A stretch of 64,000 bases of DNA from a virus (Duplodnaviria > Caudoviricetes): positions 96,001 to 160,000 of the IMG/VR virus record IMGVR_UViG_3300014203_000001. One strand, 5' to 3'. The notes below the pieces were generated by a model, which was not told the origin of the DNA, did not search any database, and saw only the letters and a program-made list of their open reading frames with translations. Position numbers and translations under genes: made by a program. The number at the start of each line of letters is the position of its first letter. Positions within the stretch are counted from its first letter, which is position 1. Below, in pieces: positions 9,567 through 32,200 of the stretch.

Positions 9567-9582
9567 TTGTCAGATAGAAATG

Positions 9583-9607
9583 CAGACTACAGCATTGCTG
9601 TAGTCTG
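9583..9607. terminator. Intergenic palindrome (AGACTAC family)
   Basis: CAGACTACAGCA-T-TGCTGTAGTCTG just after the stop of 9612..9851. Confidence 0.7.
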
Positions 9608-9611
9608 ATAT

Positions 9612-9851: not shown

Positions 9852-9904
9852 AATATACACCGTCCTCTTAAATTTATTTATTATTATGTAAACGGGTTCA
9901 AATT

Positions 9905-10123: not shown

Positions 10124-10174
10124 AATATATCACTCCAATATATCTTATAATACTATCATGTTGAGACAAAGGAC

Positions 10175-10202
10175 ATAAGACTACTCCTAGGAGTAGTCTT
10201 AT
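10175..10202. repeat. Perfect 28-bp palindrome; its 18-bp core is repeated at 10461-10478
   Basis: ATAAGACTACTCCTAGGAGTAGTCTTAT. Confidence 0.9.
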
Positions 10203-10438
10203 ATTTTATTAATCCTATCAAAGACACTTTTAGAATATATTTTATCGTTTTCTAACCTTTTTGTTATTTTTCTAAATATATCATCATTAGAACATTTTAT
10301 ATTTAATGTATCATTTTCACTGTCTTTGTATACAACTATTTTACCAGCTTTAACAGAATTTGATAATGCTAATCTAAATTCTATCTCTGTATAATGCTCT
10401 AATGAATATAATTCTGATTAGCATATTATAATATTCAT
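10199..10438 (-). pseudogene. 79-codon gene with in-frame TAA at codon 7
   Basis: GGAGGA RBS, MNIIIC*SELYSLEHYTEIEFRLALS...RINKI*; the frame is open after the TAA at 10418-10420. Confidence 0.6.
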
Positions 10439-10478
10439 ATATCCTCCAAAAATAAAAGATACTACTCCTAGGAGTAGT

Positions 10479-10922
10479 CTAGTATGGCATAAAAGTATAA
10501 TTACATGAGTCATTATATTGGAATATCATTATGTCATCGTCCCAACAAAATACTGTCATTTTATAATACGTATCAGAATAAATATTTGATTGTCCTTTAT
10601 AATAATTTATGCAAAAATCTATGGAATATTTTTCATCTTCCGAAAATACAACTATATTCTCTTTAGGAACAGAGAAGCTATTGAACAGCTCTATAACCAT
10701 CAAATTAAAATCAGATGTTGTATTCGATAAAATAAAGGTTGTATTCCTTATATCATCCTTATTCCAACCCACTATACTAAATTGATGGCGTAGAGTGTTG
10801 GCTATAGTTTCTATTTTACCTCTTTCTTCACTACCAATAATCATCACGGTTTTAGGTAAAGAATCACTAAGTTTTTTAATATAGGTTGGTATAGCATTAA
10901 TAGCACTTGTAATATCGATCAT
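10479..10922 (-). CDS. Hypothetical protein
   Basis: 147 aa, GGAGG RBS, bounded by palindromes. Confidence 0.75.
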   Translation of the reverse strand: MIDITSAINAIPTYIKKLSDSLPKTVMIIGSEERGKIETIANTLRHQFSIVGWNKDDIRNTTFILSNTTSDFNLMVIELFNSFSVPKENIVVFSEDEKYSIDFCINYYKGQSNIYSDTYYKMTVFCWDDDIMIFQYNDSCNYTFMPY

Positions 10923-10942
10923 GATATAACCTCCGATAAATT

Positions 10943-10974
10943 AAAAGAGACTACCAGTTTTGGTAGTCTCTTTT
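10943..10974. terminator. Intergenic hairpin (AGACTAC family)
   Basis: 14-bp stem AAAAGAGACTACCA/TGGTAGTCTCTTTT, 4-nt loop. Confidence 0.7.
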
Positions 10975-10982
10975 GTGTGGTA

Positions 10983-11516
10983 TTATTTAGCTACCCATGT
11001 AGGGCATGGTGCATATACTTTAATACTTTCATATGCAGGTACAAGAGTTTCCCCTCTACCATAAATAGGTTTGTTAGTTTTCTCATCAATACCAATTTGT
11101 TTTGGATAAGGACGAGGACCAGCTTCAACTTCTTTTACACTAATAGCAACATCAGATTTTTCTCTTCCGCCTAAAGGAAGTTTACGACCAGTATGGACAT
11201 AGGTGTTAATGAATTCTTTAGCAACGCCTACAAGATTCTCGGCTTCACCATTCTTAAATTCATAACCTTCCATGATGGAAGCAGCTTCAGCTGCAGGAAT
11301 TTTAGCAGCTCCAGACATAACAGATGCAGCCATAGCACGTACTGCTTTAGATGGATTAAAAGTATCAGCTTTACCTTCTTTAGTATAAACGCCTACTTCA
11401 TATGAAGTATCATTCATCATTGCTCGCATTACACGAACCTCATCTTTTTTACTACCTGTCATTTGAGTAATTGTACCTTTGATTTCGTCTACTAATTTTT
11501 TTACAGTTGTATCCAT
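10983..11516 (-). CDS. Putative divergent HU/IHF-like DNA-binding protein
   Basis: C-half pattern helix-helix-(G.KL.L)-(ISVKEV.A.P)-arm-(GE..VPA) resembles the HU fold; AACT-N6-TA at 11551-11562. Confidence 0.45.
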   Translation of the reverse strand: MDTTVKKLVDEIKGTITQMTGSKKDEVRVMRAMMNDTSYEVGVYTKEGKADTFNPSKAVRAMAASVMSGAAKIPAAEAASIMEGYEFKNGEAENLVGVAKEFINTYVHTGRKLPLGGREKSDVAISVKEVEAGPRPYPKQIGIDEKTNKPIYGRGETLVPAYESIKVYAPCPTWVAK

Positions 11517-11675
11517 TTTTATATCCCCCTTATAATTTGTTTTATTGGATTACATTAAAGTTACATGTGTAATTAATTATAATTTCATAATACCTCTAGA
11601 ATAGACTAATTATAATACATTACAAACATTAGAATTCATATTTGAATTTATTTACTAAATCTAATAGAGAATCTA

Positions 11676-11816
11676 TCATTTCTTATCTTCCTCCATTCTT
11701 TTTACTCTTACTGCTGGATATATTAGCTTAACAGGTTTACATTTCTCATGAAGAATATTATTTAATTCTTCTCTAGTGCACGTAGATATCTTCTTTAAGA
11801 ATTCAGTCTTTCCCAT
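11676..11816 (-). CDS. Small hypothetical protein (46 aa, not in track)
   Basis: MGKTEFLKKISTCTREELNNILHEKCKPVKLIYPAVRVKRMEEDKK; starts 1 nt after the upstream stop, GGAG SD inside the upstream gene. Confidence 0.55.
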   Translation of the reverse strand: MGKTEFLKKISTCTREELNNILHEKCKPVKLIYPAVRVKRMEEDKK

Positions 11817-11817
11817 A

Positions 11818-12615
11818 TTATAGCTCACTCCATATCAATGCAGTAATTTTATATTCAGTATCACTTATCTTTTCAATACCAACTATCTTTCTATCAACGA
11901 AGCCATCGCTTATTAGATTACACATATTATTTGGTTCCATTACTCTTAGGATATTCGTTTCTGTATTGAATATCATGCCATATTTTATAGGGTAATCATC
12001 TGGATCTATTTTATATAAATTGATACCTAATACTATTTGTTTTTCTAAAGGTTTATATGTAGTAATAGAAATTGTATATCTATCGTCCAGGCATTGTTTT
12101 ATTACATGTGGCAAACTAGATATAGCGTACTTATAATCTTCGTCTATATCTCCAAATACGTCTGAATCATGTATTTTATAGATTTTACCAGTAGATTTTA
12201 ATCCATCAATAAATCTTATATCTAGCATTTTTCTTCTTATATCTTCATTAACAAAATAGAAGATGATCTTAGCGATTGTATTCTCCATTATTTCCATACA
12301 ATCATCAAACTTTTCTTTAGATACTAATATACATGTGGATAATTTTTTAATTTTACCCCACCCATCAAATGGATATTCTCTATATCCATATATAGATACC
12401 AGATATTCTCCTATCTTTTCAGTATCTATATCTATAATTATTTTAGATGTATCTTTATAAAAATACTCGCATCTTTTTATAGCATCGCAGGTATCTACCA
12501 TTTTGTTAAACCCTGCATCTACTAATTCCTGTATAATATCATTAACAATACTTATTTTCTTGGGTAATTTCTTAGTTGTTTCTATTTCCTCGATAATATC
12601 TTCTATTTTTCTCAT
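11818..12615 (-). CDS. Hypothetical protein
   Basis: 265 aa, AGAGGGGG RBS. Confidence 0.8.
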   Translation of the reverse strand: MRKIEDIIEEIETTKKLPKKISIVNDIIQELVDAGFNKMVDTCDAIKRCEYFYKDTSKIIIDIDTEKIGEYLVSIYGYREYPFDGWGKIKKLSTCILVSKEKFDDCMEIMENTIAKIIFYFVNEDIRRKMLDIRFIDGLKSTGKIYKIHDSDVFGDIDEDYKYAISSLPHVIKQCLDDRYTISITTYKPLEKQIVLGINLYKIDPDDYPIKYGMIFNTETNILRVMEPNNMCNLISDGFVDRKIVGIEKISDTEYKITALIWSEL

Positions 12616-12698
12616 TTTAATTCCCCCTCTTCTTTTATTCTAAAGTCAATATTCATTTAAAATCTTATATCCTGGGTAGCATACAATTAGATATAGTA

Positions 12699-12710
12699 AA
12701 CACTAGAGTA
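12699..12710 (+). promoter_or_regulatory. Late-type promoter AACA-N6-TA
   Basis: AACACTAGAGTA upstream of the RNAP beta gene. Confidence 0.7.
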
Positions 12711-12737
12711 ACTAAACAAGAAAAGGTGGTAGATATT

Positions 12738-15700
12738 ATGACAGTATATCTTGAAGATATAAAGCCGATGATATTAAATAAAACACAGTTCTTCCTACCT
12801 ATTAACGAGGAAGATAAGAAGAAGAATAGTGCTATATTTCTATTAACTCCTAATATAGAAAGCTCTATTAATACAATGAAACACCCACTAACTTTGAATA
12901 GAAGGCTATTTGAATCTTATTATATAGAGAAGGATATCTCTTTTATTATTAATGAAGCTCACCAATTAGTAAGAAGTGATGTAGTTCCTTTATACGAATC
13001 AATGGTAGAGCAATATAAGAATAGTAGAATTTATATAAATTCCGTAAATGAACAAGCTATCCTTTCAGAAGCAGCAGAGGATATTATTGCAGAGGATTAT
13101 ACTTTACTTAGAGAAGATTATCTAGTAACAGAAGACTTTATTCATACTAATTATGAGCTTCAAGAAAGTAAGTTCTTCTTTGGAGATGCAGTTCAATCTA
13201 TATTAGAAGAAGATAGTCCTAAATCTGGTAATTATTCTGCTATGATGCGAAAGCTTCTATATTCGGAAAGAATAAAGAATCAGAAAGAATGTATTCTAAT
13301 CCATGATAAAGTAAAAGCAGATCTTGCCTTTATTAGATATACTTATATCAACTATGCTTTATATAAACAGAGAAACTTATTCATAGATTGGTCTTATTAT
13401 ACTCAGGCTTTCTTTAAGAACAATGTATATAAGTTAGATAGAGCGGTAGATCTATATTTTGAGTTTCTTAATAAATTCTTATCTGATACTAGATTAGACG
13501 ATAATGGATACAAAATCAAAACTGTATTCATTCCAGTATTAGATTGGGTTAAAACAGATATTGTTGCTTGGGATTATACAAAAGATATCAATCCTATCTC
13601 TATGATATATAGACTTCTGAAACGTAAGTCTACTATACTAACTGACAAATGGAGTGGATATACATTTGTATTCTTATCAGATAAAGCATACTTCAAGCTA
13701 AACTTCAGTGAATTCAATGAAACTAAACTTCCTGTATTTGTTAGTCTTATTAGCAAACTTAGTACAGGACAGGTTCAGGATGCTGAATTGGAAACTAATG
13801 ATTCATCTAAAGCTATTGTTCATAAAGTAATAGATAAGATGGAAGATGGTGGTATAGAAATCACTAATCTTACTGGAGGAACAACTAAGATATCTCCAGA
13901 GGAAATGAAAAAGAAGTTTGATAATGGAGATACTATTATTTCTAAAGATACGTCTAAAGAAGATGCCGAAGAAGAAAAGAAAGCTCAGTTAGTAAACCAA
14001 ATTAAAACAGTAGCTGATAAATCTTCTGATGAGAATAATGCCATGGAGAATCTAGATTCTGATATGGATAATGAATGGACTAAGCAACTTATTGTCGATT
14101 TACAATCAGAAGATGGTCCTAATATAAATGCTAGTCGAAAAGCTAGAATACTTAGTCTTAGAAGTGATTTTTCTAATAAGAAGATTAATGGTACTAAAGT
14201 AGAAGATCTTATTAAGAAGAATAAAGAGATGACCGAGTTAGAAGTGGATACTATTCCTATAGACAATATCAATGAAGAATGGCAAAATGTACAGTTTAGT
14301 ACCTTTAGTAAAAACTACGATCTAGACTCAGATATATATGCTATATTAGCAGATATGAGTTCTAAGTCAGAACCTATCATGATAATATCAGTAGATAAGA
14401 AAGATACATCTACATCGGAAGATTATATTGAGACTTGGGATATAAAATGTGAAGATGCCAATGGTAAACGTTTTACTATTAAACTGGATATTCCTAAGTT
14501 TATAAACAATCGGTATATGAAACTAAGAGGAAATCTAAAAGTAGTTAGTGGGCAATTAGTTCTTATTCCTATTATCAAGACAGATGAAGATACAGCTCAG
14601 ATAGTATCCTGTTCATATAACAAGATATTCATCAAAAGAATAAATCCAAGCGGTGGTTCTAAAACTACTAGAGCTGTTAGTAAACTAGTAAAAGCTTTAT
14701 CTAAATATGAAGGAACTAAGATAAAAACTTTTGAGGGGGATAATAGCTTTGTATCTAGTAAGTATGAACTCCCTATAGAATACAAAGATCTATCTGGATT
14801 GTATAGCAGAATAGAATTGTCAGATGGAAGTTACTTCTCTTTTAATATGGATGATATGAGAAAGATTCCTTTACAGCATCCTAAAGAAGATATGAATAGA
14901 ATACCTCTTTATGTAAATAAAGATGGTAAAGCTGAATGTTGTACGGATGAGGCAGCCAATTTCATTATGCTTAAACTTATTGCGGCAGATCCAGCTTTTG
15001 ATGATATATTGAGCAATATCAAACCAGATAAGAGATTAAGCTACACATCTGCTAGTATTCTTAATACCGATATTCCCGTTATAGTTGTTATGGCATATAG
15101 TGAAGGATTGCAAACAGCTATGACTAAAGGTGGAGTTAAATTTAATTTTACTGATAAACGTCCCAATGCCAGCGAATTTTTTATTAAGTTCTCAGATGGA
15201 TATATAGTCTATCAAGATAATCCCAGTGTTTCTCTTCTAATGAGTGGATTAGCTCATTGTGATACTGCTAGCTATTCTATTAAAGATATTAATAAAAAAG
15301 AAATGTGGTTAGATTTCTTAGATAACTTCGGTGGTAGAATAAAAGCTGATGGTTTAGATAACTTCTATGATCTCATGTTTGATCCCACTACGAAAGAGGT
15401 TTGTGAATTATATCATCTACCTACTGATTATATTGAAGCGTTAGGTTATGCTAGTGATCTTCTAACTGATACTAAGTATAATAAACATGTAGATATTTCT
15501 GGTAATAGGATTAGAACTAATGAGATAATTGCAGGATATGTGTATAAAGCTATATCTAAAGGGTATGGAGAATACAAAACTCAATTAAAGAGAAATAAGA
15601 AAGACGCTTCTCTTACAATAAAACAATCTGCAGTTATAGATAATATACTAATGGACCCTACGTCTACAGATTTGTCTATTCTAAACGCATTACTAGAAGC

Positions 15701-17192
15701 TGAAGCAAACAACGAAATGTCGTTTAAAGGATTATCTGGTATGAACTCAGATAGGAGTTACAGCTTAGATAAAAGAACATATGACGATTCCATGATGGGT
15801 GTTATTGCAGCCTCTACTGGATTTGCTGCTAATGTTGGTATTACCAGACAGGCTAGTATAAATAGTAGCGTAAAAGGAACTAGAGGTTTAATTGTTTCTC
15901 CTAAAGATAAGGATATAAATACATTAAATACTCTATGTGTAACAGAAGCTTTAACTCCATTTGGTACTACTCACGATGATCCTATTAGAACTGCCATGGG
16001 ATTTATTCAGACTTCTAAACATCAAATGCGGGTCAAGAAATCATCTCCTAATCTTATAACAACAGGAATGGATGAAGCTCTACCTTATGTAACCTCTGAT
16101 ATATTCTCTTATAAATTTAGAGGTAAGAAAGGAAAGGTATTAGAAGTTACAGACGATTATATTATATATGAAGATTCTGATACTAAAGAAAGAGGATATG
16201 TAGATATAAGAGATAATGTCATGAAGAACTCAGATGGCGGTTTCTATGTAACAGTTAAGCTAGATCCATGTGTTAAGAAGGGTGATACATTGAAGTATCA
16301 TGATATACTTGCATATGACAAATCATCATACTCTAAAGCCATTGGAACGGATAAATCTGAGAAGACTATCTCATACAATATTGGTACTATGGCTAAGATA
16401 GGAATACTCACAACAGATGAAGCATTTGAAGATAGTGCTATATTTGATACATATCTATCCGATGCTCTTAGTTCTACTTATTGTGTGAAAAAAGAAAGAG
16501 CTTTATCTAAAGATACAAATGTATACAATGTTCTTAAGAAAGGAGATCCTATAGAAGAGGGAGATCCTCTAATAATATTCCAGAATGCATTTGATGAGAA
16601 AGATGCTAATGCTTTACTTAAATCTATAACAGATGATGATGTAGAAGCTATATCTGACTTGGGACGTATCCATGTTAGATCTAAAATGACAGGATGGGTA
16701 CAAGATGTAAAGATCTATCGTACATGTGAACTAGATGATCTATCTCCATCTTTAAAGAAACTTGTAGTTGAATATGAAAAAGGTATTCAAAAACAGAAGA
16801 AGTTATTTAAAGATAATAAGATGGAAGGAATGAATCATATACTAGAGCCAGACTATAAACTTCCTTCTACTGGTAAACTAAAAGGTGTAGATAACGGAGT
16901 CCTCATAGAATTCTATATCAAATGCGAGGATAAGTTTGGTATAGGAGATAAGCTAGTATATAACAATGCAATCAAAGGTGTAGGAAAAGATATAATAGCT
17001 GAGGGAGAAGAACCGTATACGGACTTCCGTAAAAATGAACCAGTAAATGCTTTACTAGCAGTAGCATCTGTAAATGCTCGTATGGCTTCTTCTATATTTC
17101 TTACAGGAGCATTGAATAAGTTCTTAGTAGAATTAGATAGAGCTTGTAAGGAAAAGCTAGGAATTCCATGGAAAAATTTAAAGGATATGTAA
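12738..17192 (+). CDS. Phage multisubunit RNA polymerase beta-like subunit, probably virion RNAP (phiKZ gp178-like)
   Basis: RpoB motifs HDDPIRTAMG..Q..Q, AFEDS, GDKL....KG, NARM. Ends just after the SRM-equivalent (split beta). Long N-terminal extension; late promoter. ATG 12738 fits the RBS better than GTG 12726. Confidence 0.9.
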   Translation: MTVYLEDIKPMILNKTQFFLPINEEDKKKNSAIFLLTPNIESSINTMKHPLTLNRRLFESYYIEKDISFIINEAHQLVRSDVVPLYESMVEQYKNSRIYINSVNEQAILSEAAEDIIAEDYTLLREDYLVTEDFIHTNYELQESKFFFGDAVQSILEEDSPKSGNYSAMMRKLLYSERIKNQKECILIHDKVKADLAFIRYTYINYALYKQRNLFIDWSYYTQAFFKNNVYKLDRAVDLYFEFLNKFLSDTRLDDNGYKIKTVFIPVLDWVKTDIVAWDYTKDINPISMIYRLLKRKSTILTDKWSGYTFVFLSDKAYFKLNFSEFNETKLPVFVSLISKLSTGQVQDAELETNDSSKAIVHKVIDKMEDGGIEITNLTGGTTKISPEEMKKKFDNGDTIISKDTSKEDAEEEKKAQLVNQIKTVADKSSDENNAMENLDSDMDNEWTKQLIVDLQSEDGPNINASRKARILSLRSDFSNKKINGTKVEDLIKKNKEMTELEVDTIPIDNINEEWQNVQFSTFSKNYDLDSDIYAILADMSSKSEPIMIISVDKKDTSTSEDYIETWDIKCEDANGKRFTIKLDIPKFINNRYMKLRGNLKVVSGQLVLIPIIKTDEDTAQIVSCSYNKIFIKRINPSGGSKTTRAVSKLVKALSKYEGTKIKTFEGDNSFVSSKYELPIEYKDLSGLYSRIELSDGSYFSFNMDDMRKIPLQHPKEDMNRIPLYVNKDGKAECCTDEAANFIMLKLIAADPAFDDILSNIKPDKRLSYTSASILNTDIPVIVVMAYSEGLQTAMTKGGVKFNFTDKRPNASEFFIKFSDGYIVYQDNPSVSLLMSGLAHCDTASYSIKDINKKEMWLDFLDNFGGRIKADGLDNFYDLMFDPTTKEVCELYHLPTDYIEALGYASDLLTDTKYNKHVDISGNRIRTNEIIAGYVYKAISKGYGEYKTQLKRNKKDASLTIKQSAVIDNILMDPTSTDLSILNALLEAEANNEMSFKGLSGMNSDRSYSLDKRTYDDSMMGVIAASTGFAANVGITRQASINSSVKGTRGLIVSPKDKDINTLNTLCVTEALTPFGTTHDDPIRTAMGFIQTSKHQMRVKKSSPNLITTGMDEALPYVTSDIFSYKFRGKKGKVLEVTDDYIIYEDSDTKERGYVDIRDNVMKNSDGGFYVTVKLDPCVKKGDTLKYHDILAYDKSSYSKAIGTDKSEKTISYNIGTMAKIGILTTDEAFEDSAIFDTYLSDALSSTYCVKKERALSKDTNVYNVLKKGDPIEEGDPLIIFQNAFDEKDANALLKSITDDDVEAISDLGRIHVRSKMTGWVQDVKIYRTCELDDLSPSLKKLVVEYEKGIQKQKKLFKDNKMEGMNHILEPDYKLPSTGKLKGVDNGVLIEFYIKCEDKFGIGDKLVYNNAIKGVGKDIIAEGEEPYTDFRKNEPVNALLAVASVNARMASSIFLTGALNKFLVELDRACKEKLGIPWKNLKDM

Positions 17193-17506
17193 GAAAAGTA
17201 AAGAGGTATAGCAATGCTATACCTCTTATCTAAGTTCTCCATATATTCATAGAAGAAGTCTACAAATATAATTAAAAAATTAATAATATAATATAAGTTC
17301 GAGAGTATAGACAATCGTCTATACTCTCTCCTATATTTCTTATTAAGTTTCTTTATGGCTTTGTGTCTTCTCTTAGGATAATCATCAAATGTCCGATATG
17401 AACTCTTACGTACTAATAGATCGTCATTAATAAGATAATACGCTGTGATTCCTAATATATGACTACGCTTCTTTAATATCTCTTTTAGCGATTCAATGGT
17501 TTTCAT
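16913..17506 (-). CDS. Hypothetical protein (basic KRR..IKKL motif plus TM helix); 3' part overlaps the RNAP gene antisense
   Basis: Paralogous motif with 17511..17933; the portion past ~17200 runs through a hairpin and is probably not selected. Confidence 0.55.
   Translation of the reverse strand: MKTIESLKEILKKRSHILGITAYYLINDDLLVRKSSYRTFDDYPKRRHKAIKKLNKKYRREYRRLSILSNLYYIINFLIIFVDFFYEYMENLDKRYSIAIPLYFSYISFKFFHGIPSFSLQALSNSTKNLFNAPVRNIEEAIRAFTDATASKAFTGSFLRKSVYGSSPSAIISFPTPLIALLYTSLSPIPNLSSHLI
17201..17227. terminator. Bidirectional palindrome (GAGGTATA family)
   Basis: AAGAGGTATAGCA-A-TGCTATACCTCTT between convergent genes. Confidence 0.75.
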
Positions 17507-17510
17507 AACA

Positions 17511-17933
17511 TCAATTCCTTTTTATTCCATCTATTATTAGCTCTTCTGCTGATGGAAGATTAAGATCTATTATATCCCCGTCAAGATCCAAACCAGCCAA
17601 CGAGTAGAATTCTGGAATGTTACCTATATTATCTGGAGATTTTACATAGATATGTTTGATCGGAATCCTTGGATATACTCTCGAATAATCAAAGTCTTTA
17701 AAATCTAATGGATTTCCATCATAATCCCCACATAACATAGGTGGAATTTTAAATATATTTCTATATACTCTAGACAGTTTCTTTATTAAACTTTCTCTTC
17801 TCTTTTTATGTTTAGGAAACTTTTGATACGCCTCGATATATACAAATCTACTCCCAGGTATTCTATATGTGATATCACTTAATAAGCATATCTCAAAATA
17901 CTCTAGATCTTTCCTGTATTTAATATTCTCCAT
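17511..17933 (-). CDS. Hypothetical protein with DYDGN and DLDGD motifs
   Basis: 140 aa, AGGAG RBS. Confidence 0.75.
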   Translation of the reverse strand: MENIKYRKDLEYFEICLLSDITYRIPGSRFVYIEAYQKFPKHKKRRESLIKKLSRVYRNIFKIPPMLCGDYDGNPLDFKDFDYSRVYPRIPIKHIYVKSPDNIGNIPEFYSLAGLDLDGDIIDLNLPSAEELIIDGIKRN

Positions 17934-17956
17934 TCTTATACACTCCTTTAAAAATA

Positions 17957-17984
17957 AAGAGGTATAGCAATTGCTATACCTCTT
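17957..17984. repeat. Perfect 28-bp palindrome, near-identical to 17201-17227
   Basis: AAGAGGTATAGCAATTGCTATACCTCTT. Confidence 0.9.
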
Positions 17985-17993
17985 CTATTCTGA

Positions 17994-19334
17994 TTAAATG
18001 ATTTTGATCTCCGAAACATCGTCAGATTTAAACATTAATACCTTTTCTTTATCTCCATCTTCGATTGTTACTTCAACGATAGATCCGAATTTGATACTAT
18101 GTTTCGCATCTTGAGAGATGTCGAATAATTTAGTAGTTCCATCTTTGAAATATACTTGAACTTTCTTATTTAAATAAGCAGATTCTGTAACATGATTCTT
18201 TTCTGTATCTTCGCCAAAGAAATAGGCATTGCGTGTTGTATTAAATACTGGGCGTTTGGCGTTTCGCCAAGCTAATGCTTTTTCTACCAGATATGAACCA
18301 CATCCAATATCATCCTCACCTTTTTCAATCTTAGTATTTTCTTTATTAGACGAATTATTATCCATAAAGTCTACACTTGGAGGTAATGGTATAGTATCTG
18401 TATCGCCAGATTTATTATAATGCGATAGACCTATACTCGGAGTCAAATACTCAGTTGATTTGAGTTTATAAGAATTAAAATCTGATGGATTTTGAAGTTT
18501 AATTAATACATCTGTATTGCCACTGGCATCTACAGCGCAATCTTCCTCCTGTTCGATCTTATCGGAAGTGACTAGAGGATTTTCTAATTTAACTTCAGTG
18601 AATGCAGCAGAAGGTTGCTTCACTATAGAGTTCTTGATATTTTGAGCTACTACTTTTCCATTTATCTGTTTATCATTCAATACATCATTGATTTTCTCAA
18701 GATAAACATCTTTATCTTTAAGAGTCAAAGCACTGATATAGTCATGGACTTTGATCAGGTTCTCGATTTTCCGTTCCATATTATGGATCGAAGTGATAAA
18801 CTCTAGCACTTTAGAGAAAGAATTAAGCTTTTCTCTAGTTAGCGTAAATAGCTTCAATTGCTCAGCGGAACCTAGAATTGCGCCGATGCACTCGCTTGAA
18901 AAGTGTAGTTCATTGTCAAGAATAACATGATCATGTTTTCTAGTTCTGTTGAATACAAATCTTTCTGGGAATACCTGATCGTATTCGCAGTCAACAAAAT
19001 ACCTATTAGCATTCTGACGGAACTTTTCTTTCTTCTTGTAGTCAGCCACTTTATAAATAGCTTTCTTGGTATAGAGAAATACATATCTGATTTTTCCTCT
19101 AATATTAATACCACTATCTGCTAATTCCTTAGCCCCATCATATATCTTGACATAATCCTCAGGATTTAGATAATTGTAGGTTCTCATATAGGTTAGGGTA
19201 CCAGTCACACTCTGTTTAACTAGAACGCTTACTTTAGACTCTTCTGTTAACCCCAAAAGAATTTTAGCTACACTCATAGCTGGGTACATTTTCTTTCCTG
19301 CTACCATTACATATAGTTTGTTTTCGTTTGTCAT
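17994..19334 (-). CDS. Hypothetical early protein
   Basis: 446 aa, GAGGGGAGAG RBS, early motif at 19377-19392. Confidence 0.85.
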   Translation of the reverse strand: MTNENKLYVMVAGKKMYPAMSVAKILLGLTEESKVSVLVKQSVTGTLTYMRTYNYLNPEDYVKIYDGAKELADSGINIRGKIRYVFLYTKKAIYKVADYKKKEKFRQNANRYFVDCEYDQVFPERFVFNRTRKHDHVILDNELHFSSECIGAILGSAEQLKLFTLTREKLNSFSKVLEFITSIHNMERKIENLIKVHDYISALTLKDKDVYLEKINDVLNDKQINGKVVAQNIKNSIVKQPSAAFTEVKLENPLVTSDKIEQEEDCAVDASGNTDVLIKLQNPSDFNSYKLKSTEYLTPSIGLSHYNKSGDTDTIPLPPSVDFMDNNSSNKENTKIEKGEDDIGCGSYLVEKALAWRNAKRPVFNTTRNAYFFGEDTEKNHVTESAYLNKKVQVYFKDGTTKLFDISQDAKHSIKFGSIVEVTIEDGDKEKVLMFKSDDVSEIKII

Positions 19335-19376
19335 AATAAAATCTCTCCCCTCTTCGATACAATATTTTATTATTGC

Positions 19377-19392
19377 TCACATATATAATATA
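19377..19392 (-). promoter_or_regulatory. Early-type promoter TATATTAT-N5-TGA
   Basis: One of 13 copies, all intergenic and upstream of genes. Confidence 0.75.
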
Positions 19393-19428
19393 TAACTATA
19401 TTGTGTAAGATTTACAAAAAAGGAATAG

Positions 19429-19653
19429 CTATATAGCTATTCCTTTATCATACTTATGCTTATCATAGTATCTAATATTTAACCTATCTCTACGATACCA
19501 ATTGGTTTTGTCCTCAATTAACTTGTATATCTGTCTATGTCTGCTATTACCAGGTTTGTGCATATAGCATACTTCTCCGCATCTTGGATAAAGATTATAC
19601 TCGTCAAAATCGTTTATTCCATATAGTTCTTTTCTACTTGGCAATGTTATCAT
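19429..19653 (-). CDS. Hypothetical protein
   Basis: GGGGAGGTG RBS before ATG 19653; flanked by perfect palindromes 19419-19446 and 19697-19732. Confidence 0.65.
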   Translation of the reverse strand: MITLPSRKELYGINDFDEYNLYPRCGEVCYMHKPGNSRHRQIYKLIEDKTNWYRRDRLNIRYYDKHKYDKGIAI

Positions 19654-19696
19654 ATCTTCACCTCCCCTAATCAATAGTAATTATTTGATAAAAATA

Positions 19697-19732
19697 AATA
19701 TAGAGGTATACCAATTGGTATACCTCTATATT
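19697..19732. repeat. Perfect 36-bp palindrome (GAGGTATA family)
   Basis: AATATAGAGGTATACCAATTGGTATACCTCTATATT. Confidence 0.9.
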
Positions 19733-19739
19733 AATAGGA

Positions 19740-19925
19740 TTATAATAAGAATAATGCTACTAAGGTTGCATATCCTACTAATAGGTATGCTATTCCTTTT
19801 AATACAATAACTGAATCTTCTTTAGTCCAGTTTTCTTTGATATACTTGGCTCCGTAAAATACACCTAAAAGTGATATTACTATTACCTCTACAATATCTG
19901 ATACTAATGCTGATACTATTCCCAT
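19740..19925 (-). CDS. Small 2-TM membrane protein (early)
   Basis: Two hydrophobic helices, AGGAG RBS, early motif at 19954-19969. Confidence 0.7.
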   Translation of the reverse strand: MGIVSALVSDIVEVIVISLLGVFYGAKYIKENWTKEDSVIVLKGIAYLLVGYATLVALFLL

Positions 19926-19980
19926 AGTAAAACAACTCCTTTTATATTATACTTCATCTATATAATATATAACCTAAATT

Positions 19981-20505
19981 TATAACTAATGCATATTTAC
20001 AATACTGTAGATATATAAATAATAAGTTATATAATACAGTAAGCATACCAGATACTATTATAGTATCTGGTATTATATTAATTCTTCTATTCTTTATTAA
20101 TCATGTCTATTTATCTTAATTTTGATCCCCCTTACGAATATGTAGTACTTTTAGAAATTAATTTGATAATTTTATACGTATCTTAACTTTCTCTATTATT
20201 AGTATACTAATAATAGAGAAAACAGTAAAATAGAGAGAAGACTATAGTCTTCTCTCTAATCATATTCATCCTCTATTTCTCCTACCAAAATCCCCTCTAT
20301 TGATATGTAATTGTTTTAGTTTTTAATTTGTATTTCTCAGTAACATAGATAATTTCCTATATAAACAAGTATCTAATATAGGAAAAGACAGTATAATTAC
20401 AGATAATCAATGATTATCTGTTCTATCTCTAATTAATCATGTCTATTCTCTTATTTCAGATCCCCCTTATGAATATGTCATGCTTTTAGAAATTAATTTG
20501 ATAAA
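19981..20505 (-). repeat. Three tandem ~165-170-bp non-coding units (hairpin-ACAGTA-hairpin-pyrimidine tract-promoter motif-TTTTAGN4TAATTTG)
   Basis: 20097-20169 and 20433-20504 are near-identical; the middle unit is diverged but colinear; late-type motifs at 20133-20144, 20298-20309, 20468-20479. Confidence 0.8.
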
Positions 20506-20519
20506 AATATCAATAGTTA

Positions 20520-20535
20520 TATATTATAAGTATGA
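20520..20535 (+). promoter_or_regulatory. Early-type promoter TATATTAT-N5-TGA
   Basis: TATATTATAAGTATGA. Confidence 0.75.
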
Positions 20536-20568
20536 ATAGTAATAAAATATATAAAGGTGGTATAACTA

Positions 20569-20907
20569 ATGGAAAAGATAGTAGTTACAGTGGAGAATAT
20601 TAAGGAGGTATTTGATAAGATTAAGTCGTTACAATCTCCTAAAAAAGACATTGAATTAGAATATGGAATAGTAGATATTGCTAATGTATTTACAACTACT
20701 GAATGTAGTTGTAAGTTAAAAGAGTACAAGGTTGGAATATATAATTATATCAAATACAACCAATCAAATGTTAAAATCGAGATAAACTTCGACCTAGGAA
20801 CTAATATAATATTTCCAGGAATGGTTATAGTATTTGAAAAGGATTCATTCTACATATATTCAGATATAAAACTTCCAGTTATATCTCAAAGGTTTACTAT
20901 TAAATAA
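20569..20907 (+). CDS. Hypothetical early protein, likely paralog of 21210..21704
   Basis: N-term IVVTVENIKEV vs IILTTENTKSV; C-term VIVFEKDSFYIY vs LVIFDDVLFIY. Confidence 0.75.
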   Translation: MEKIVVTVENIKEVFDKIKSLQSPKKDIELEYGIVDIANVFTTTECSCKLKEYKVGIYNYIKYNQSNVKIEINFDLGTNIIFPGMVIVFEKDSFYIYSDIKLPVISQRFTIK

Positions 20908-20909
20908 AA

Positions 20910-21121
20910 GACACAATATATGCAGTAGTACTAAATTGTACTACTGCATATATCAGTGTAAAAAGGATGTAATAGTATATCAAAATGTTATTTTACTAGA
21001 TCGCCCAAATCTAATAAAATAATCAGAAGTAATCAAAAGGGAAGGTATTGTGTGCGAAGCAATACCTTCTATATATGGGGATAATAAGAGGAGAGAGTTA
21101 GCTGCTTGCATAACTAACTTT
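20910..21121 (-). ncRNA. Candidate structured small RNA with multiple anti-Shine-Dalgarno tracts
   Basis: GACA-N6-TA motif at 21121-21132; hairpins 21096-21119, 21041-21069, 20988-21022 (mismatches become G-U only on minus); terminal 16-bp hairpin 20916-20953; no ORF. Confidence 0.55.
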
Positions 21122-21209
21122 ACATATATGTCTATCAGTTATTATTTTTTATAAATATATATTATATAGGTGAGCAATAAATATATTGCATCATAAGGAG
21201 GAATTAATT

Positions 21210-21704
21210 ATGGATATGATTATTTTAACTACAGAAAACACGAAGAGTGTTAAAGAGAAATTAATAAAGTTTTTAGGTAATAGTGACTATTGCACTTATA
21301 TGAAAGGAATGAGAGGACCAGCTAAATTAAATAGAAAAGAAGCTTTTTGTGGATGTGATTTTAATAGAGTTGCTATTTTGAAAGGTTTTAAAATATGTGG
21401 CAATATGGAACTTTGTGATGCTATAGATGATAAATTTCAGTATACTACAGCTGCTACTGGAATCGATATATGTTTATCGCATGGGTTAATCAATATACCA
21501 ATCAATACAACGCTAGTTATTTTTGATGATGTGTTATTTATATACTATGATAAGACATTAGGGGAACAATGCGCTAGAATCAGTTTACGTAATGACGAAG
21601 AAGTTAATGCAGATAAGGATGAATTTGGTAAGTATATTATAGAAGAGATCAAAGAAATTACTGTTAAAACAAACCCGATGCGTAAACTTAGAACTGACAA
21701 ATAA
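21210..21704 (+). CDS. Hypothetical early protein
   Basis: AGGAGG RBS before ATG 21210; early motif 21158-21173. Confidence 0.8.
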   Translation: MDMIILTTENTKSVKEKLIKFLGNSDYCTYMKGMRGPAKLNRKEAFCGCDFNRVAILKGFKICGNMELCDAIDDKFQYTTAATGIDICLSHGLINIPINTTLVIFDDVLFIYYDKTLGEQCARISLRNDEEVNADKDEFGKYIIEEIKEITVKTNPMRKLRTDK

Positions 21705-21711
21705 AAAGAAA

Positions 21712-21748
21712 ATATACACCACGGTACAAATTGTACCGTGGTGTATAT
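21712..21748. terminator. Bidirectional palindrome between convergent genes
   Basis: 18-bp arms ATATACACCACGGTACAA/TTGTACCGTGGTGTATAT. Confidence 0.8.
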
Positions 21749-21751
21749 CTA

Positions 21752-22477
21752 TTAGTTATTATTTTCTACAACAGAGAAATCTAAATCTTCTCTAACTATC
21801 TTAGTTCCAGAACTAAACGAAATGGTATATTTCATATCCTTAGTATCTTTGAATGATACATATCCTCCTGGAACTGTAAAACCTTTAAGTTTTATTTTTT
21901 GTAACATTGCAAAGAAATCGTTATTCTGTACTGGCTCGTCGTTACAAGTTATGGCTGTAATGTTTCCTTGAATATTGTAAGCTGAGATGATCTTATCGAT
22001 AACAGCTAGCTCATTATCAATAACATCTTTAATCTCTTCATTTGTTTTAGTAATAGCTTCAACTAGATCTTCTTCTATATTAGGTTCATTATCTTCGCAA
22101 TACATAGATTGATAAAAGTCTACGGCATTGGTTCTAATATCATTCTTTTTACTTTTTTCATTTAGTTCGCTTAGAGGAGTATCCATTACAGCTTTAATAG
22201 CTTCCTCTTCTAATTTTAATATAGTTTCTAGATCCTTATCTTCTAATTCGATAAGTTCTCCATCTGATAATATAACGAATATAGCAGATTTTAATTCCTC
22301 TGCGGCTTGTCTAATTGTATCTAGACACGTTTGATACGTACCAACCAAAGCACCCTTTTTAATTTCATTGAGAGTTGATATAATATCTGCACAAACTTTT
22401 ACCCTGAATACCTCATCACAATCATTTGGTTGTGGTGTTAAGAATATAAATACAGTATTTGTAATATTTGGTTCCAT
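21752..22477 (-). CDS. Hypothetical acidic protein
   Basis: 241 aa, AGGAGG RBS. Confidence 0.8.
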   Translation of the reverse strand: MEPNITNTVFIFLTPQPNDCDEVFRVKVCADIISTLNEIKKGALVGTYQTCLDTIRQAAEELKSAIFVILSDGELIELEDKDLETILKLEEEAIKAVMDTPLSELNEKSKKNDIRTNAVDFYQSMYCEDNEPNIEEDLVEAITKTNEEIKDVIDNELAVIDKIISAYNIQGNITAITCNDEPVQNNDFFAMLQKIKLKGFTVPGGYVSFKDTKDMKYTISFSSGTKIVREDLDFSVVENNN

Positions 22478-22478
22478 T

Positions 22479-22989
22479 TTAGTTTCCTCCTTTTGAGAAT
22501 AAAGTAGTTACAACAAGTTTAGTTGTATTGAAGGTAGCGGGCGTCATAATCCTTTTATAATATGATTCATTCGAATGGAACCAATCTAGTGCGGTATTAT
22601 TAAACTTATATCCCATCTAGAATCATTTCAGCAATATATACTCTATCCATATCAATAGGATGGTCTCCCGCTTTATCTCTCATTACCCAATACTCTGGAT
22701 GATGTTTATTGGTATTCATATGGTGTAGCCATGCTTTATCAAATTCAGTATGTATTGTTTCATCGCCAATATCATCACTATCTGGATAGAACTTCTTTTT
22801 ATACCCAGAAAACTCAGCTATTGCAAATTTAGAATTATCGTGAACATTTGTATTCATACCTAACTTTGTTGATAATGATTCATTTTTCATTATACCTAGT
22901 ATTTCCATTCCATATTCTATAAAAGCTTTCTTTACATTGTCTTTATGGTCAATAATATATTCTTGATATTTCTGTACTTGTTTTGTCAT
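22479..22989 (-). pseudogene. HD-like (DUF5662-type) protein, frameshifted at ~22615
   Basis: HK..V, HDNSK, HH...NKHHPEYW, EMILD motifs. The expected tail MGYKFNNTALDWF...KGGN* lies in another frame (22479-22616) and ends 1 nt before the next ATG. Confidence 0.65.
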
Positions 22990-23093
22990 TTTAACCTCTC
23001 CCTTAATATCTATTTTATTATATAGTAAATATCCGTATACAAATATACTAGAGTTGGTACAATATAGTAAATTTAAAAAGGGGGAGTTTGGTA

Positions 23094-23762
23094 ATGAGTG
23101 GAAAAATTATTGTATTTGAGGGGTTAGATTGTAGTTTTAAAGAGACCAATTCTAAGGCTTACTACGAGTATCTTTTATCTAAAGGAGAAAAGGCAAGTAT
23201 ATATCACTTTCCTAAATATGAAGAAGAATCTTCTTATTTTGTAAGAGAGTATCTTGCTGGCAAATATGGAGATACTAAAGAATTAAATCATGGGGTAGTA
23301 TCTATGCTGTATATGGTAGATATGTTCGATAGTGCTAAGAAACATATCATTCCAGATTTAATGGATGGAAAAACTATTATTCTAGATCGATATTGGTATT
23401 CTAATCTTTACTTTAGAATTGGTATTTCTAGAATGATTAAAGATAATATTCTACCTAATTGGATATGCGATACTATAGGAGCTATTTCTAAAATATTAGA
23501 ACTACCTACAGCTGATATTGTAGTGAAATTAAAATCAAACCCTGGCGTTATGCTAGATTTTGTACATAAAAAGAACACAAAGAATGATCAACACGAAAAC
23601 AACGACGAGCTTCTACTTACAGTAGCAGATGTTTTTAATAATATAAATCTTGGAGATTATGTAAACGATAAAGTTGTTGACGTATATACAACTAACAATG
23701 GAGAAGTACGATCTAAGGACGATATCTTTAGTGATATCTTAAAGGTATTATGCGATGAATAG
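23094..23762 (+). CDS. tmk: Thymidylate kinase-like (atypical P-loop EGLDCSFKET)
   Basis: IIVFEGLD P-loop, HFP, ILDRY..SN, LPTADIV motifs. Confidence 0.8.
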   Translation: MSGKIIVFEGLDCSFKETNSKAYYEYLLSKGEKASIYHFPKYEEESSYFVREYLAGKYGDTKELNHGVVSMLYMVDMFDSAKKHIIPDLMDGKTIILDRYWYSNLYFRIGISRMIKDNILPNWICDTIGAISKILELPTADIVVKLKSNPGVMLDFVHKKNTKNDQHENNDELLLTVADVFNNINLGDYVNDKVVDVYTTNNGEVRSKDDIFSDILKVLCDE

Positions 23763-24195
23763 TGATGGGGATAGAGTAATAGCTATCTTAACAGATAGAA
23801 CATTTTGTATTAGAAATGTAGCTGTTGTGATTGATCATGTGAATAGCATAATTTCTAAAAATAGAGATGCTATTTATATATACGGAATGAATGAACGGGT
23901 AGATTCTCATGTAGAGTATTTTGCTAGAACATATGCTCTTCCTAAAGATGCTCTTAATAAATTTGAATATGATGCGACTAGCCCGTTAGCTATATCCAAA
24001 GAGTTCTTTTCTTTATTACGATATAATATCGATGAGCTTCATCTATTCACCGATTATCCAAATTCAGATACAGCTTCACTTATTACTAGGTGTAAAGAAG
24101 CAGCAATTCCAGTAACTATTATAAATAGTTCTCCTGATATTATATATGATGCAAAATCTAATGGTAGTGTAACTTATTATAAAAGAGGGGTATAA
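23755..24195 (+). CDS. Degenerate SLOG-family (YspA/DUF2493-like) protein
   Basis: Pattern VIAILTDR..IYG...VD..VEYFA..DELHLF..T..LI...IPVTII. Confidence 0.45.
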   Translation: MNSDGDRVIAILTDRTFCIRNVAVVIDHVNSIISKNRDAIYIYGMNERVDSHVEYFARTYALPKDALNKFEYDATSPLAISKEFFSLLRYNIDELHLFTDYPNSDTASLITRCKEAAIPVTIINSSPDIIYDAKSNGSVTYYKRGV

Positions 24196-27942: not shown

Positions 27943-28102
27943 AATGATATATCAGATAACCGTATTTGGTTATCTGATATATGCTGTGTAAAAATAATGC
28001 TGAATATATATTATATACTTGAAACACGAAAGGTATTTTGAACAAATACAAGAAAGTGCAAGACCAAATAGACAAAATTAAAAGAAAAGAGGAGAGAGTA
28101 AA

Positions 28103-29198: not shown

Positions 29199-29253
29199 AT
29201 CATATATTATATAAGTGAGCGTGTATATAAAATTATAAGAGGAGGAAACACAA

Positions 29254-32200
29254 ATGGCTTGCAAAAATATCGATCACAGTTATAAATGTAACTGTGATGT
29301 AGATGGTAAAGAAGAACCGATAAGAATTGCAGATGATAATATAACTGCATACAATGGTTTATTTGCGTCCATGCCAGAGGATGATATTGCAATGGAAGAA
29401 TTTAATAGCATTATCAGCCAGCATGGATTAGACAAAGTGTGCGAAATGTTCCCGTATGTAAAAATGAAACTAAATAGATATGGTGTCTATGTTCCTATAG
29501 ATGGGAATCAATCTTCTAAGATTTCTAACTTATACCATATCCTTAAAGCTAAAAGAAGAGATGAGGCTAACGAAGCCGCAGCTGCGGCTAAACCTAATCC
29601 TTTTTCTAGCTTATTAAAATCAATGCAACCAAAACCTGCACAACAACCACAGGTTCAAGCTCCAACACAACAAGTAGCTCAACCTGTGAATAGAACACAA
29701 GCACAACCTATCCAAGCACAACCCGTTCAAAGAGAACGTACTTTAAGACCTTCTGAACGTAGAAGAAAGAATTGGTTCAGAGGATATGCACCAGAAAATT
29801 ATAAACAGCCTGTTCGTGAAGAGCAACCACAACAGCAAATTGTTGAACCACCATCACAACAACAATTGAACAACGATCCAATGTATATTAGATTCTTACA
29901 AGAAAAAGCTGTGTATGAGCAGCAACAGATGATGCAACAGCAAACCCAACAGGTTGGCGGGTATGTTTCTGCTAATCAGGATCAGCAAATGATGGGATAC
30001 GTTCCAGCATACCCACAACAACCACAGATGAACGGATACGTTCCTGCTAGCGAAGAAACCTATCCAGAAACTCAACCTACTAGAAGAATTAGTAGAGAAG
30101 AACAACAGTTTGAAGAAGCTGTAAAAAATGTGAGAGTTATTGGTGGTTTTATTCCAGATAAGGATGAAGAAAGAACTATTAGTTTTAAAGCAAGTTCTTT
30201 TCTTGGGGAGAAACATGAAGAAAAGAAATACAGTCACAACTATAAAGATACAGGGAGTTTAGAACCTAAAGGTGGAGTGGATGCATACAATCCAGAATGG
30301 CATCCAAACGATCCTAAAAATTATCCTCAACAACCAACTCAATCTATGTTTCCAACGACTCCTGCATCAAATGGTATTCCTCAACCGGCTTATTATCAAG
30401 CAGGTACTCCTGGAATGGTTAATGAGAACGTACCTGGAAAAGAAACATTCTTCTCATTGAATAAGATGGTAAGAGATAAAGCCAATCAGAATTCTAATTG
30501 GCAACCAAACCATTTAACTATCAAAACACCTGAATTCCCAGATGGGATTGATGAGTCGCATCCTGAGTTTAAACGAGTACACGCTGGGATGATGCACTTT
30601 GATTGTTTTGATGGTGAATATGAATATATGAGTGCTGGATATGTGTCTAAAGCTAAAGTAACTGGAGGGGATGGATGGATTGACCCTGCAGAACTACTTT
30701 GCCCTACAGATGATGAAGTAACTGATAAAGAGCTAGAGGATGCTCTTATTGAAAAACAATTTGGTGAGCGTATTAGAAATAATAATATGGATAATACTCC
30801 ACCAGCTCAACCAGCTAAGAGTAAAACTGGGCAAGTGAGAATGTCTCCTGAAAAAATGCAAGCACTATTTGGTAATAACTTTAAGACCAATCCAATGCCT
30901 GTACCACCATCTATTCCTTCACCACAACCTACCGCTTTCATACCACCGAATCAATTGTATCATCAACAACCGTATTACAATAATGGCATGACAATGCCAC
31001 CAAATGGAATACCACAGATGATGATGGGACCGTTGGGTCCTGTTGGTATGTCAATGCCTAATGGCTCTAGACGTATGTCTGCTGAATGGCAAGCTAGGTA
31101 TGGTGATAATGAATGGATGCTTCCTACCCAGGAAGAACTTGATAGTGGAAAATGTACAATGGCATATATCGTTAAAGGTGAACCAGAGGAAAGCATAATC
31201 GAAAAGAAAAGAGAAAGCCTTGATGATATTAAAGTCGCTGTTGTAAAAGCGCATAAAGACGAAAATGGAGTAGAGTGGGAAGAGTTTCTTTATGGAGATG
31301 AAGAAGCTGTTAATAAGAAAAAGGATAAAAAATCCATATCCTACCAAGAAGCATATGTGTTAGCTAAAAAGGTAGAAGCTGAAAATGATACATATGCTTT
31401 AGCTAAAGAACTTTCTAGATATAACACACATCTAGCAGATGATCTTCTGTGGCATCAACAAAACGCAGACCTCGATTTATTTCATCAAGTTAAGAGTGAA
31501 GCTAGAGATGCATTATTAAGATATAGAGGTGAGGACAACTTATCGGCTATCAAATCAACCGTATTTGTTGCTGGTGATAGAACTATAGTACAACCAGGTA
31601 AACCAACCTCTATGGGAGAACTAGAAAGAATTGCCATGAATGAGCTTCTAAAATATAAATCTCAAAAAGAAAAGAATGAAGCTAAAGAAGAAGAAATTAT
31701 TGAGAATTATAGAAGAAACTCAAGATCCAATCCTGTTACAATGCAGATCGAAGAAATACGATCCGGAAAATCATTAAGCACTATAGTCAAGAGGCTCCAA
31801 ACCTTTACTGATATGCGGATTATTTGCACGCCAAAAGAAGAAAAAATGAATAGAGAGTTGCAGCAACGAATAAGCGCCACTCTAAATCCTATGCAAATAA
31901 ATGAACGTGATAACTATTTTACTTGGAAAAAGCTAACCAAACTGGCTAGAAAAACTACTGGTGCTGATATGAGTAATTTCGATAGGGAGTTTGATGAATG
32001 GTGGGGCAAACCAAGAATCATTACTCCTGCTCAAAAAGCAAAAGATATCGAAGACTATAGACTTATGATGACCGAAGCAAAAATAGACTACTATAATACA
32101 CTAGTACCATCACCGCCAGAAGGAACAATTAACGTAGAATATCAGCGAGAATTACAAAAAGCTTTTCATGATTTTGATAAGGGGACGATCACCCCTGATC

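Follow-up and report, generated by a model that had tools for sequence, protein, structure and literature searches.

A conserved structured element, most likely a non-coding unit read on the minus strand, in an AR9-like jumbo phage, and its candidate pairing partners

Small RNAs encoded by phages are a known kind. P22 sar, P1/P7 c4, and lambda OOP are phage antisense repressors that cover a ribosome-binding site (RBS), and IS10 RNA-OUT and IS200 art200 are small antisense RNAs that control the translation of transposases. RNAIII of Staphylococcus aureus (514 nt, host-encoded, and experimentally proven) pairs with the coa or rot mRNA. In jumbo phages that encode multisubunit RNA polymerases of their own, the timing of gene expression is attributed mainly to two promoter classes, and we know of no trans-acting RNA regulator that has been characterised in the AR9-like group.

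In AR9, the early promoter consensus is AAATATATATTAT-N6-G, and late transcripts arise from AACA-N6-T(A/G) promoters, seven of them antisense (PMC5312081). Substitutions at positions -11 to -8 abolished transcription by the AR9 nvRNAP in vitro (PMC5449584). RoxS and RsaE are C-rich-region sRNAs of Bacillota (PMC5419742). Here, we compare a structured element from another phage, which we call W, with these systems. The window, which is the whole stretch of DNA that we analysed (64,000 nt), comprises bases 96001–160000 of a 245,713-bp IMG/VR phage record; positions refer to the window unless a genome or contig is named.

An AR9-like phage and its promoters

Judging from its sequence, W is an AR9-like jumbo phage. 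Its genome has about 246 kb and 32% G+C, and it encodes a multisubunit RNA polymerase (RNAP) beta-like subunit at 12726–17192. By RNAP beta, the nearest named phages are Listeria LPJP1, Staphylococcus S6 and PALS_2, and Yersinia phiR1-37, at roughly 30–34% identity (the top identity is 33%, for Listeria LPJP1 and Staphylococcus S6), and a DNA comparison with named phages gave no match. As relatives, we used two IMG/VR contigs, L009 (G001, 184 kb) and L010 (G002, 48.6 kb), whose RNAP beta proteins are both 77% identical to that of W. Searching for further relatives with the RNAP beta protein and its alignment returned only the same two IMG/VR contigs. A DNA pattern made of the two hairpin loops described below hit IMG/VR in 94 stretches and prokaryote genomes in 5; apart from the two known relatives, these were all chance matches. 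A metagenome scan recovered the W phage itself again and added no member, and three DNA sequencing runs yielded only source-like contigs, with 0 variants in the element. A look through public sequencing runs turned up no RNA run that contains this phage.

The beta-like subunit differs in length among the three phages (1488 aa in W, 1716 aa at 10001–15151 of L009, and 1765 aa at 10001–15298 of L010), and this difference is a variable insert after about residue 90. The "direct terminal repeat" of the record is only 124 bp long (its first bases recur at 245590); it resembles an overlap left by the assembly of a circularly permuted genome more than a genuine repeat of the ends.

About 55 early promoters of the AR9 type, of the form TTATATATTATATAnnTGA, are present genome-wide in W. 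Examples in the window are at 19392 (-), 19969 (-), 20520, 21158, 27201, 28007, 29203, and 45703, and many W early promoters are followed by a shared leader hairpin (GAGCAAUA...UUGCAUC). As for late promoters, AACA-N6-TA occurs 44 times in the sense orientation within the 100 nt upstream of W genes, versus 14 times in antisense and 11 expected (a 4-fold enrichment). The enrichment is specific to the spacing (44 sites with N6, 16 with N5, and 12 with N7), and the distances from the start site to the ATG cluster at 14–28 nt. Because of this enrichment, the exact spacing, and the clustering of distances, we consider the AR9 late-promoter grammar to be valid for W.

An initial annotation of this DNA had proposed that the element is driven by a late promoter, GACA-N6-TA, and this motif is indeed found on the minus strand. 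Its 6-nt spacer followed by T and A/G (GACA TATATG TA) is that of an AR9 late promoter, and at -11 to -8 it has GACA instead of AACA. All three phages share a promoter-like block of RACA, a variable N6, and TAAA, with G at -11 in W and L010 (GACA in both) and the full AACA in L009 only. An ACA and a TA that stay invariant around a freely varying N6 are the pattern that would be expected of a promoter. GACA-N6-TA is not clearly enriched upstream of W genes (11 sense and 6 antisense sites versus 5.4 expected), and only 2 of 9 such sites lie at the typical distance from an ATG. The motif, its spacing, and its conservation in a block support the proposal, but the G at -11 departs from what AR9 requires, and we regard the late-promoter reading as uncertain.

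Architecture, conservation, and strand of the element

The element sits in a 302-bp gap between two plus-strand genes, p112 (20569–20907) and p164 (21210–21704), each of which has its own early promoter (20520 and 21158, respectively). There is no gene on the plus strand of 20908–21209. The four minus-strand hairpins that had been described, three plus a terminal one, are all where they were reported (hp1 to hp4 in Table 1), and the linkers taken for anti-Shine-Dalgarno (anti-SD) tracts, AUCCCC and CCCUUUU among them, read as described. It also holds that some stem mismatches are G-U pairs on the minus strand only (one in hp1 and two in hp3); the same positions are A-C mismatches on the plus strand. 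The terminal hairpin, hp4, has 18 pairs and the tail TGTCTTTTAT. It combines a G+C-containing stem-loop with a U-run on the transcribed strand, as intrinsic terminators do, and it is terminator-like on the minus strand only.

Table 1. Features of the element and of its candidate pairing partners, in window positions
Feature	Position	Strand	Remark
Late-promoter-like motif GACA-N6-TA, GACATATATGTA	21132–21121	-	predicted RNA 5′ end is the A at 21121
Hairpin 1 (hp1), loop UAUGCAAGCA	21096–21119	-	1 G-U pair
Linker 1, unpaired, 26 nt, C/U-rich (CUCUCCUCUUAUUAUCCCC...), contains YCUCUUA	21070–21095	-	
Hairpin 2 (hp2), loop core UUCGCAC, then U-run	21041–21069	-	
Hairpin 3 (hp3), sequence specific to W	20986–21025	-	17 pairs, 2 G-U
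Linker 3, unpaired, 26 nt	20960–20985	-	with 4 nt of the hp3 base, carries the 15-nt tnpB complement (20975–20989)
Hairpin 4 (hp4, 20911–20959) and U-run, terminator-like 3′ end	20896–20959	-	-27.9 kcal/mol
p241	21752–22477	-	its homologue adjoins that of the element in the relatives
RBS of the early RNase H gene, identical to 21086–21098	28087–28099	+	complementarity not kept in the relatives
SD (AUAAGAGGAG) and codons 2–3 (GCUUGCA) of the 1073-aa gene	29235–29263	+	complementary to linker 1 and the hp1 loop
GUGUGCGAA in codons 62–64 of the 1073-aa gene	29437–29445	+	complementary to the hp2 loop
SD and start codon of tnpB	45607–45633	-	12- and 15-nt blocks identical to the element's plus strand

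In both L009 and L010, the counterpart of the element's 5′ half follows immediately downstream of the gene homologous to p241, on the minus strand, and the W core is the sole non-coding part of 20500–21800 that can still be aligned to the relatives. The order within this conserved 5′ module is the promoter-like block, hp1, the YCUCUUA linker, a small GCCC/CCCC element, hp2, and a U-run. The loop of hp1 (10 nt) and the loop core of hp2 (7 nt) are invariant in all three phages. All 18 cells of the hp1 stem are paired; of its 6 pairs, 3 have changes on both sides and 2 show G-U, which is seen in W and L010. The stem of hp2 is entirely different in L010: it has 10 pairs in W versus 11 in L010, and six positions have changed on both sides with pairing kept (MAFFT did not bring hp2 into register across the phages). 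Because both stems covary, we conclude that the hairpin structure is selected. The 3′ half, which consists of hp3, linker 3, and hp4, is lineage-specific as far as the sequences go. Neither of the two loop hairpins has a paralogue in the three genomes. Note that the conservation rests on three genomes, two of which are close to each other.

The module of the relatives heads a non-coding array of 550–680 nt with about 10 hairpins and a fold z-score near -10, and L009 and L010 are collinear across the whole hairpin array. It is located at 17090–17636 of L010 and 17380–18060 of L009 (minus), between p241 and an ORF of 61–63 aa, and its roughly 10 strong hairpins are all different. Near the 3′ end of the array there is a second AACA-N6-TA, with a very purine-rich leader (GGAGGGGGAUGG...). 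W keeps related array units (AAGGGGGAUC after ACA-N6-TA) at 19926–20568.

Both p112 and p164 are missing from the two relatives, and L009 carries a different inserted gene; early promoter, small gene, and terminator seem to be mobile together as cassettes. Searches for relatives of p112 and p164 found none. A search of 5.8 billion proteins for homologues of p241 returned p241 alone, and this protein was assigned to no family and had an unusable structure prediction (pLDDT 46).

Several features bear on which strand is read. In L010, hp1 forms on the minus strand only, and several other hairpins of the relatives also have G-U pairs that exist only on that strand. U-runs trail the hairpins on the minus strand, all genes neighbouring the L010 element are on the minus strand, and hp3 of W folds with -12.0 kcal/mol on the minus strand versus -7.4 on the plus strand. 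The fold z-score of the element (-6.5) is equal on both strands, and the total folding energy showed no strand difference. The unpaired segments contain 25–28% C and 8–12% G in all three phages, versus 16% each genome-wide. An RNA on the minus strand is indicated by the G-U pairs and by the minus-only hp1 of L010, and the element is a discrete, conserved, and structured non-coding unit that is most likely read on the minus strand.

In W, the p164 cassette cuts the core off from p241, and the p112 cassette cuts it off from the rest of the array. Since the severed core keeps the promoter-like block and a strong terminator, it looks like an autonomous unit rather than an element of a 3′ or 5′ UTR. 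We think that a minus-strand RNA is probably made from it.

A 43-aa ORF on the minus strand of W lacks an SD, and only 14 and 9 codons of it are left in the relatives; we rejected a protein-coding reading because the ORF is not conserved. We also set aside a 3-codon mini-ORF on the plus strand (UUG CAU AAC UAA), which is kept only as loop and stem; L010 lacks a plus-strand promoter. A cis-antisense RNA was rejected because no gene lies opposite the element, and the candidate targets are 7–41 kb away. A comparison of the window with Rfam gave no family at its gathering score (there were chance-level matches only, at E up to 5), neither tRNAs nor a tmRNA were found, and the element did not match the covariance models of RsaE/RoxS. 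In the surroundings of the element, there is a 19-bp perfect palindrome between the convergent genes p164 and p241 (21710–21750), with a U-run on the minus strand only, and plus-strand early genes near p164 often end at hairpins without a U-tract.

Complementarity to phage initiation regions

According to the initial annotation, a 13-nt stretch of the element is identical to the RBS of the early RNase H gene (rnh), and the RNA would cover this RBS, silence RNase H, stabilise nearby R-loops, and thereby switch the mode of replication. The gene does encode an RNase H (Pfam PF00075) and has an early promoter at 28007. The 13-nt identity was confirmed and is the sole such pair in the genome; 3 of the 13 bases fall inside the stem of hp1. 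Among 223-nt windows without a translation start of their own, 0.6% genome-wide share an SD-core-containing 13-mer with any RBS zone; when any 13-mer and any initiation region are counted, the share of windows is 10%. Because as many as 64 of 287 RBS zones (22%) have a 13-mer in common with a different RBS zone, the rnh 13-mer is unremarkable for an SD-like tract, and the match is weak support for rnh as a target.

Duplex energies differ between W and its relatives. When paired against RBSs, linker 1 of W beats 100 of 100 shuffled versions (in W only), and its top targets are an 87-aa gene at 62330 (-24.2 kcal/mol), rnh (-23.4), and a gene at 17994 (-21.0), all three of which lie behind early promoters. 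In W, rnh ranks 2 of 287 by linker duplex energy and is the best target by cofolding (ddG -25). In the relatives, however, the rnh RBS ranks 35 of 197 (L009) and 7 of 43 (L010), at about -12 kcal/mol, and the best duplex that their linkers form with any RBS was matched by 36% and 13% of shuffles, which is no better than chance. Shuffled controls thus favor anti-SD pairing in W but in neither relative. Covariation of seed and RBS fails for rnh in the relatives, and the idea of rnh as the specific target is not supported, given the loss of complementarity in both of them. The broader claim of an sRNA that occludes SDs stands in part: the unpaired segments are C/U-rich and G-poor and the W linker beats its shuffles, but the linkers of the relatives do no better than theirs. 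Since the rnh pairing and the strong anti-SD capacity are specific to W, they cannot explain why the core is conserved. We consider the RNase H model very improbable overall. The perfect and genome-unique complement, the high rank of rnh in W, and its early class speak for it, but the complementarity is not conserved and 13-mers shared between SD-like tracts are common.

The only candidate target with complementary sites kept in all three phages, by comparison of their sequences, is a 1073-aa gene of no assigned family (29254–32475), which heads an early operon just after rnh. The SD of this gene forms 10, 10 (two of them G-U), and 9 pairs with linker 1 in the three phages, and GCUUGCA at +4 to +10 complements the hp1 loop. 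A second site at +184 to +192 forms 9 Watson-Crick pairs with the hp2 loop in W; in the relatives, there are 8 such pairs and one G-U. The codons at this second site (GTG TGC GAA), of which GTG and TGC are rare (9% and 30% usage), are identical in the three phages, whereas 5 of 6 flanking conserved residues differ synonymously. Covariation of seed and RBS holds for this gene in W and L010 and not cleanly in L009.

A combined loop score ranks the 1073-aa gene 2 of 287, 1 of 197, and 1 of 43. Among 125 orthologue pairs between W and L009, no other has, in both genomes, complements of at least 7 nt to each of the two loop cores. In 20,000 shuffles that preserve the composition, the fraction that gave any such pair was 0.08% for the region from -40 to +250, 0.3% if extended to +500, and 16% for whole genes. 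Shuffle tests with single loops gave P = 0.53 for the hp1 loop (not significant) and P = 0.07 for the hp2 loop, and the double loop match within W alone is not significant (P = 0.22). Because the test was framed after the pattern had been seen, we treat the match as a lead and not as a result.

Another lead is tnpB. The minus-strand gene at 44493–45611 encodes a 372-aa TnpB of the IS605 family, with OrfB_IS605, Cas12f1-like TNB, and HTH_OrfB_IS605 domains; it is single-copy in W and missing from the available parts of the relatives. A 12-nt block of the element, TAATAAGAGGAG (21082–21093), covers the tnpB SD and has its complement in linker 1, and a 15-nt block, GTATATCAAAATGTT, covers the AUG. 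Together, the two blocks account for 27 of 36 nt. Each is unique in the genome, and both lie in, or mostly in, unpaired linkers of the predicted RNA. Of 8368 windows of 223 nt, only the element region and the terminal-repeat duplicate reach 26 nt. The summed duplex energy of linkers 1 and 3 is also best for tnpB (-41.2, z = -3.5). The 12-mer is mostly ancestral (L009 has UCCUCUUA), and the 15-mer lies in the W-specific half. Because tnpB is missing from the relatives, this pairing cannot explain the conservation of the core either.

The element was also considered as the omega (right-end) RNA of TnpB, and this identity was rejected: it is 23 kb from tnpB, and it matches the 5′ initiation region and not the right end. 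Just past the tnpB stop (about 44300–44490), there is a G+C-richer structured stretch, which is likely the omega RNA, followed by a terminator hairpin.

Our preferred reading, which we find quite plausible and hold tentatively, is that the element constitutes a self-contained gene for a small non-coding RNA, that this RNA represents a new family whose three known members all come from one AR9-like clade, and that it pairs with initiation regions. The conservation, the covarying stems, the base composition, and the complementarities are shown by the sequences; we infer transcription, strand, timing, and repressive action as follows. Transcription of the minus strand would start near 21121, from the late-promoter-like motif of the AR9 type, and the RNA would end after hp2 (about 85 nt) or at the hp4 terminator (about 210 nt). 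The RNA would most likely act in trans by base-pairing: contacts with translation-initiation regions of phage mRNAs would be made by the unpaired segments, which are rich in C and poor in G, and perhaps by the loops, and the bound RNA would block the ribosome. In W, the candidate targets are tnpB (SD and AUG), the 13-nt match at rnh, two early genes (62330 and 17994), and the gene at 29254. The best-supported view keeps the general idea of a pairing sRNA, probably a late one, and drops the rnh target and the replication story, with tnpB and the 1073-aa gene as better candidates. A more specific version, in which a late, nvRNAP-made RNA with several seeds clamps the SD, the start codon, and codons 62–64 of the 29254 gene and a newer second seed silences tnpB in W, strikes us as unlikely. 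Also, the most conserved parts of the element are its loops and not the linker seed, which is unusual for a seed-driven sRNA.

Competing explanations and comparison with known systems

This emphasis on the loops is where a protein-binding or cis-acting RNA module comes in. Such a module might serve in processing, stability, termination, or antitermination, or as a decoy; its loops would be protein recognition sites and its C/U tracts would be incidental. Loops that stay invariant (10 and 7 nt) on rewritten stems typify hairpins that a protein recognises. The linker is variable, and the relatives do not keep its anti-SD strength. In L009 and L010, the module stands at the head of about 10 arrayed hairpins that extend towards a downstream gene. 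The YCUCUUA motif also seems to resemble the boxA core of phage lambda nut sites. In W, however, inserted plus-strand cassettes separate the element from the minus-strand genes upstream and downstream, and this makes a cis effect on an adjacent gene difficult to uphold. Furthermore, no paralogous loop hairpin was found in any of the three genomes, and no candidate binding protein was found, the adjoining p241 having neither a family nor a usable model; on balance, we think this module rather unlikely. The same loops, stems, and promoter-like block count against another explanation, that the region holds leftover or working terminators and cassette boundaries in hyper-plastic intergenic DNA, with RBS matches arising by chance in purine-rich and AT-rich sequence and without any dedicated function as RNA. 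Decaying terminators would not be expected to show invariant loops on rewritten stems or to keep a promoter-like block. The unpaired parts are C-rich and G-poor in all three phages, and the two-block match to tnpB is unique in the genome. Still, the region is a hotspot for the insertion of early-promoter cassettes, most of the hairpins are perfect palindromes that fold equally on both strands, and shared 13-mers are frequent, both among RBS zones (22%) and between windows and some initiation region (10%). We find this explanation doubtful.

Finally, the element might work as DNA, for instance as part of a replication origin or as a recombination or packaging site, with its inverted repeats acting as hairpins in the DNA or as sites bound by protein. 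Nowhere in the genome is G+C lower than in the 5 kb around the element (0.291; 115–120 kb bin), this region lies on the plateau of the cumulative GC-skew minimum (genome 105–120 kb, or window about 9000–24000), the inverted repeats form a dense array, and the AR9 nvRNAP can act on single-stranded DNA (PMC5449584). However, GC skew follows gene orientation in W, so the minimum is not diagnostic of an origin. No iterons or repeated boxes were found, and every hairpin is different. The G-U pairs in the stems make sense only for RNA, and the asymmetric composition of the unpaired segments is likewise an RNA-type feature. A DNA-level role therefore seems improbable to us, although less so than the RNase H model.

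Returning to a pairing small RNA, what would be new about the element is that it is an sRNA of a jumbo phage with its own polymerases. If this is true, a conserved late RNA that silences early messages would add a post-transcriptional layer to the early–late switch. Should the more specific version with several seeds also hold, AR9-like dU-type jumbo phages would have in this RNA their first riboregulator of a transposon and of temporal gene control. Pairing at the initiation region of tnpB would exemplify a virus that restrains a transposon via RNA. The element also offers a small and testable set of RNA–RNA pairs with natural covariation, and a new RNA family to seek in the clade.

In its promoter grammar and its early consensus, the element resembles the late transcripts of AR9, where late promoters without a protein gene provide a precedent; in contrast, no conserved structured sRNA was described there (PMC5312081), and W has a G at the essential -11 position. 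As with IS10 RNA-OUT and IS200 art200, the complementarity of the predicted RNA falls on the SD and start codon of a gene that a transposon carries, here tnpB. Those two RNAs are encoded inside the element that they control, opposite their target, whereas the W RNA would be encoded about 24 kb away in phage DNA, and the W core predates the IS. The predicted sites on the 29254 mRNA, three in number, recall RNAIII, which combines a duplex that covers the SD with loop–loop contacts, one of them in the coding region; unlike for RNAIII, the three-site model is only a statistical lead.

As a short, structured phage RNA that is complementary to the RBS of another temporal class, the element is also like P22 sar, P1/P7 c4, and lambda OOP. 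It differs from them in that sar and OOP are of the cis-antisense type and c4 has its target operon close by, whereas the candidates here are 7–41 kb off and there are several possible seeds. With RsaE and RoxS, it shares the form of a multi-hairpin RNA of 100–200 nt whose unpaired segments are C/U-rich and G-poor, as in sRNAs of Bacillota that target the SD; unlike them, it is encoded by a phage, would be made by a phage polymerase, and is most conserved in its loops and not in its C-rich tracts. The element belongs to no family described so far, and its working would be most like that of the C-rich-region sRNAs of Bacillota and of the phage antisense RNAs that cover an RBS.
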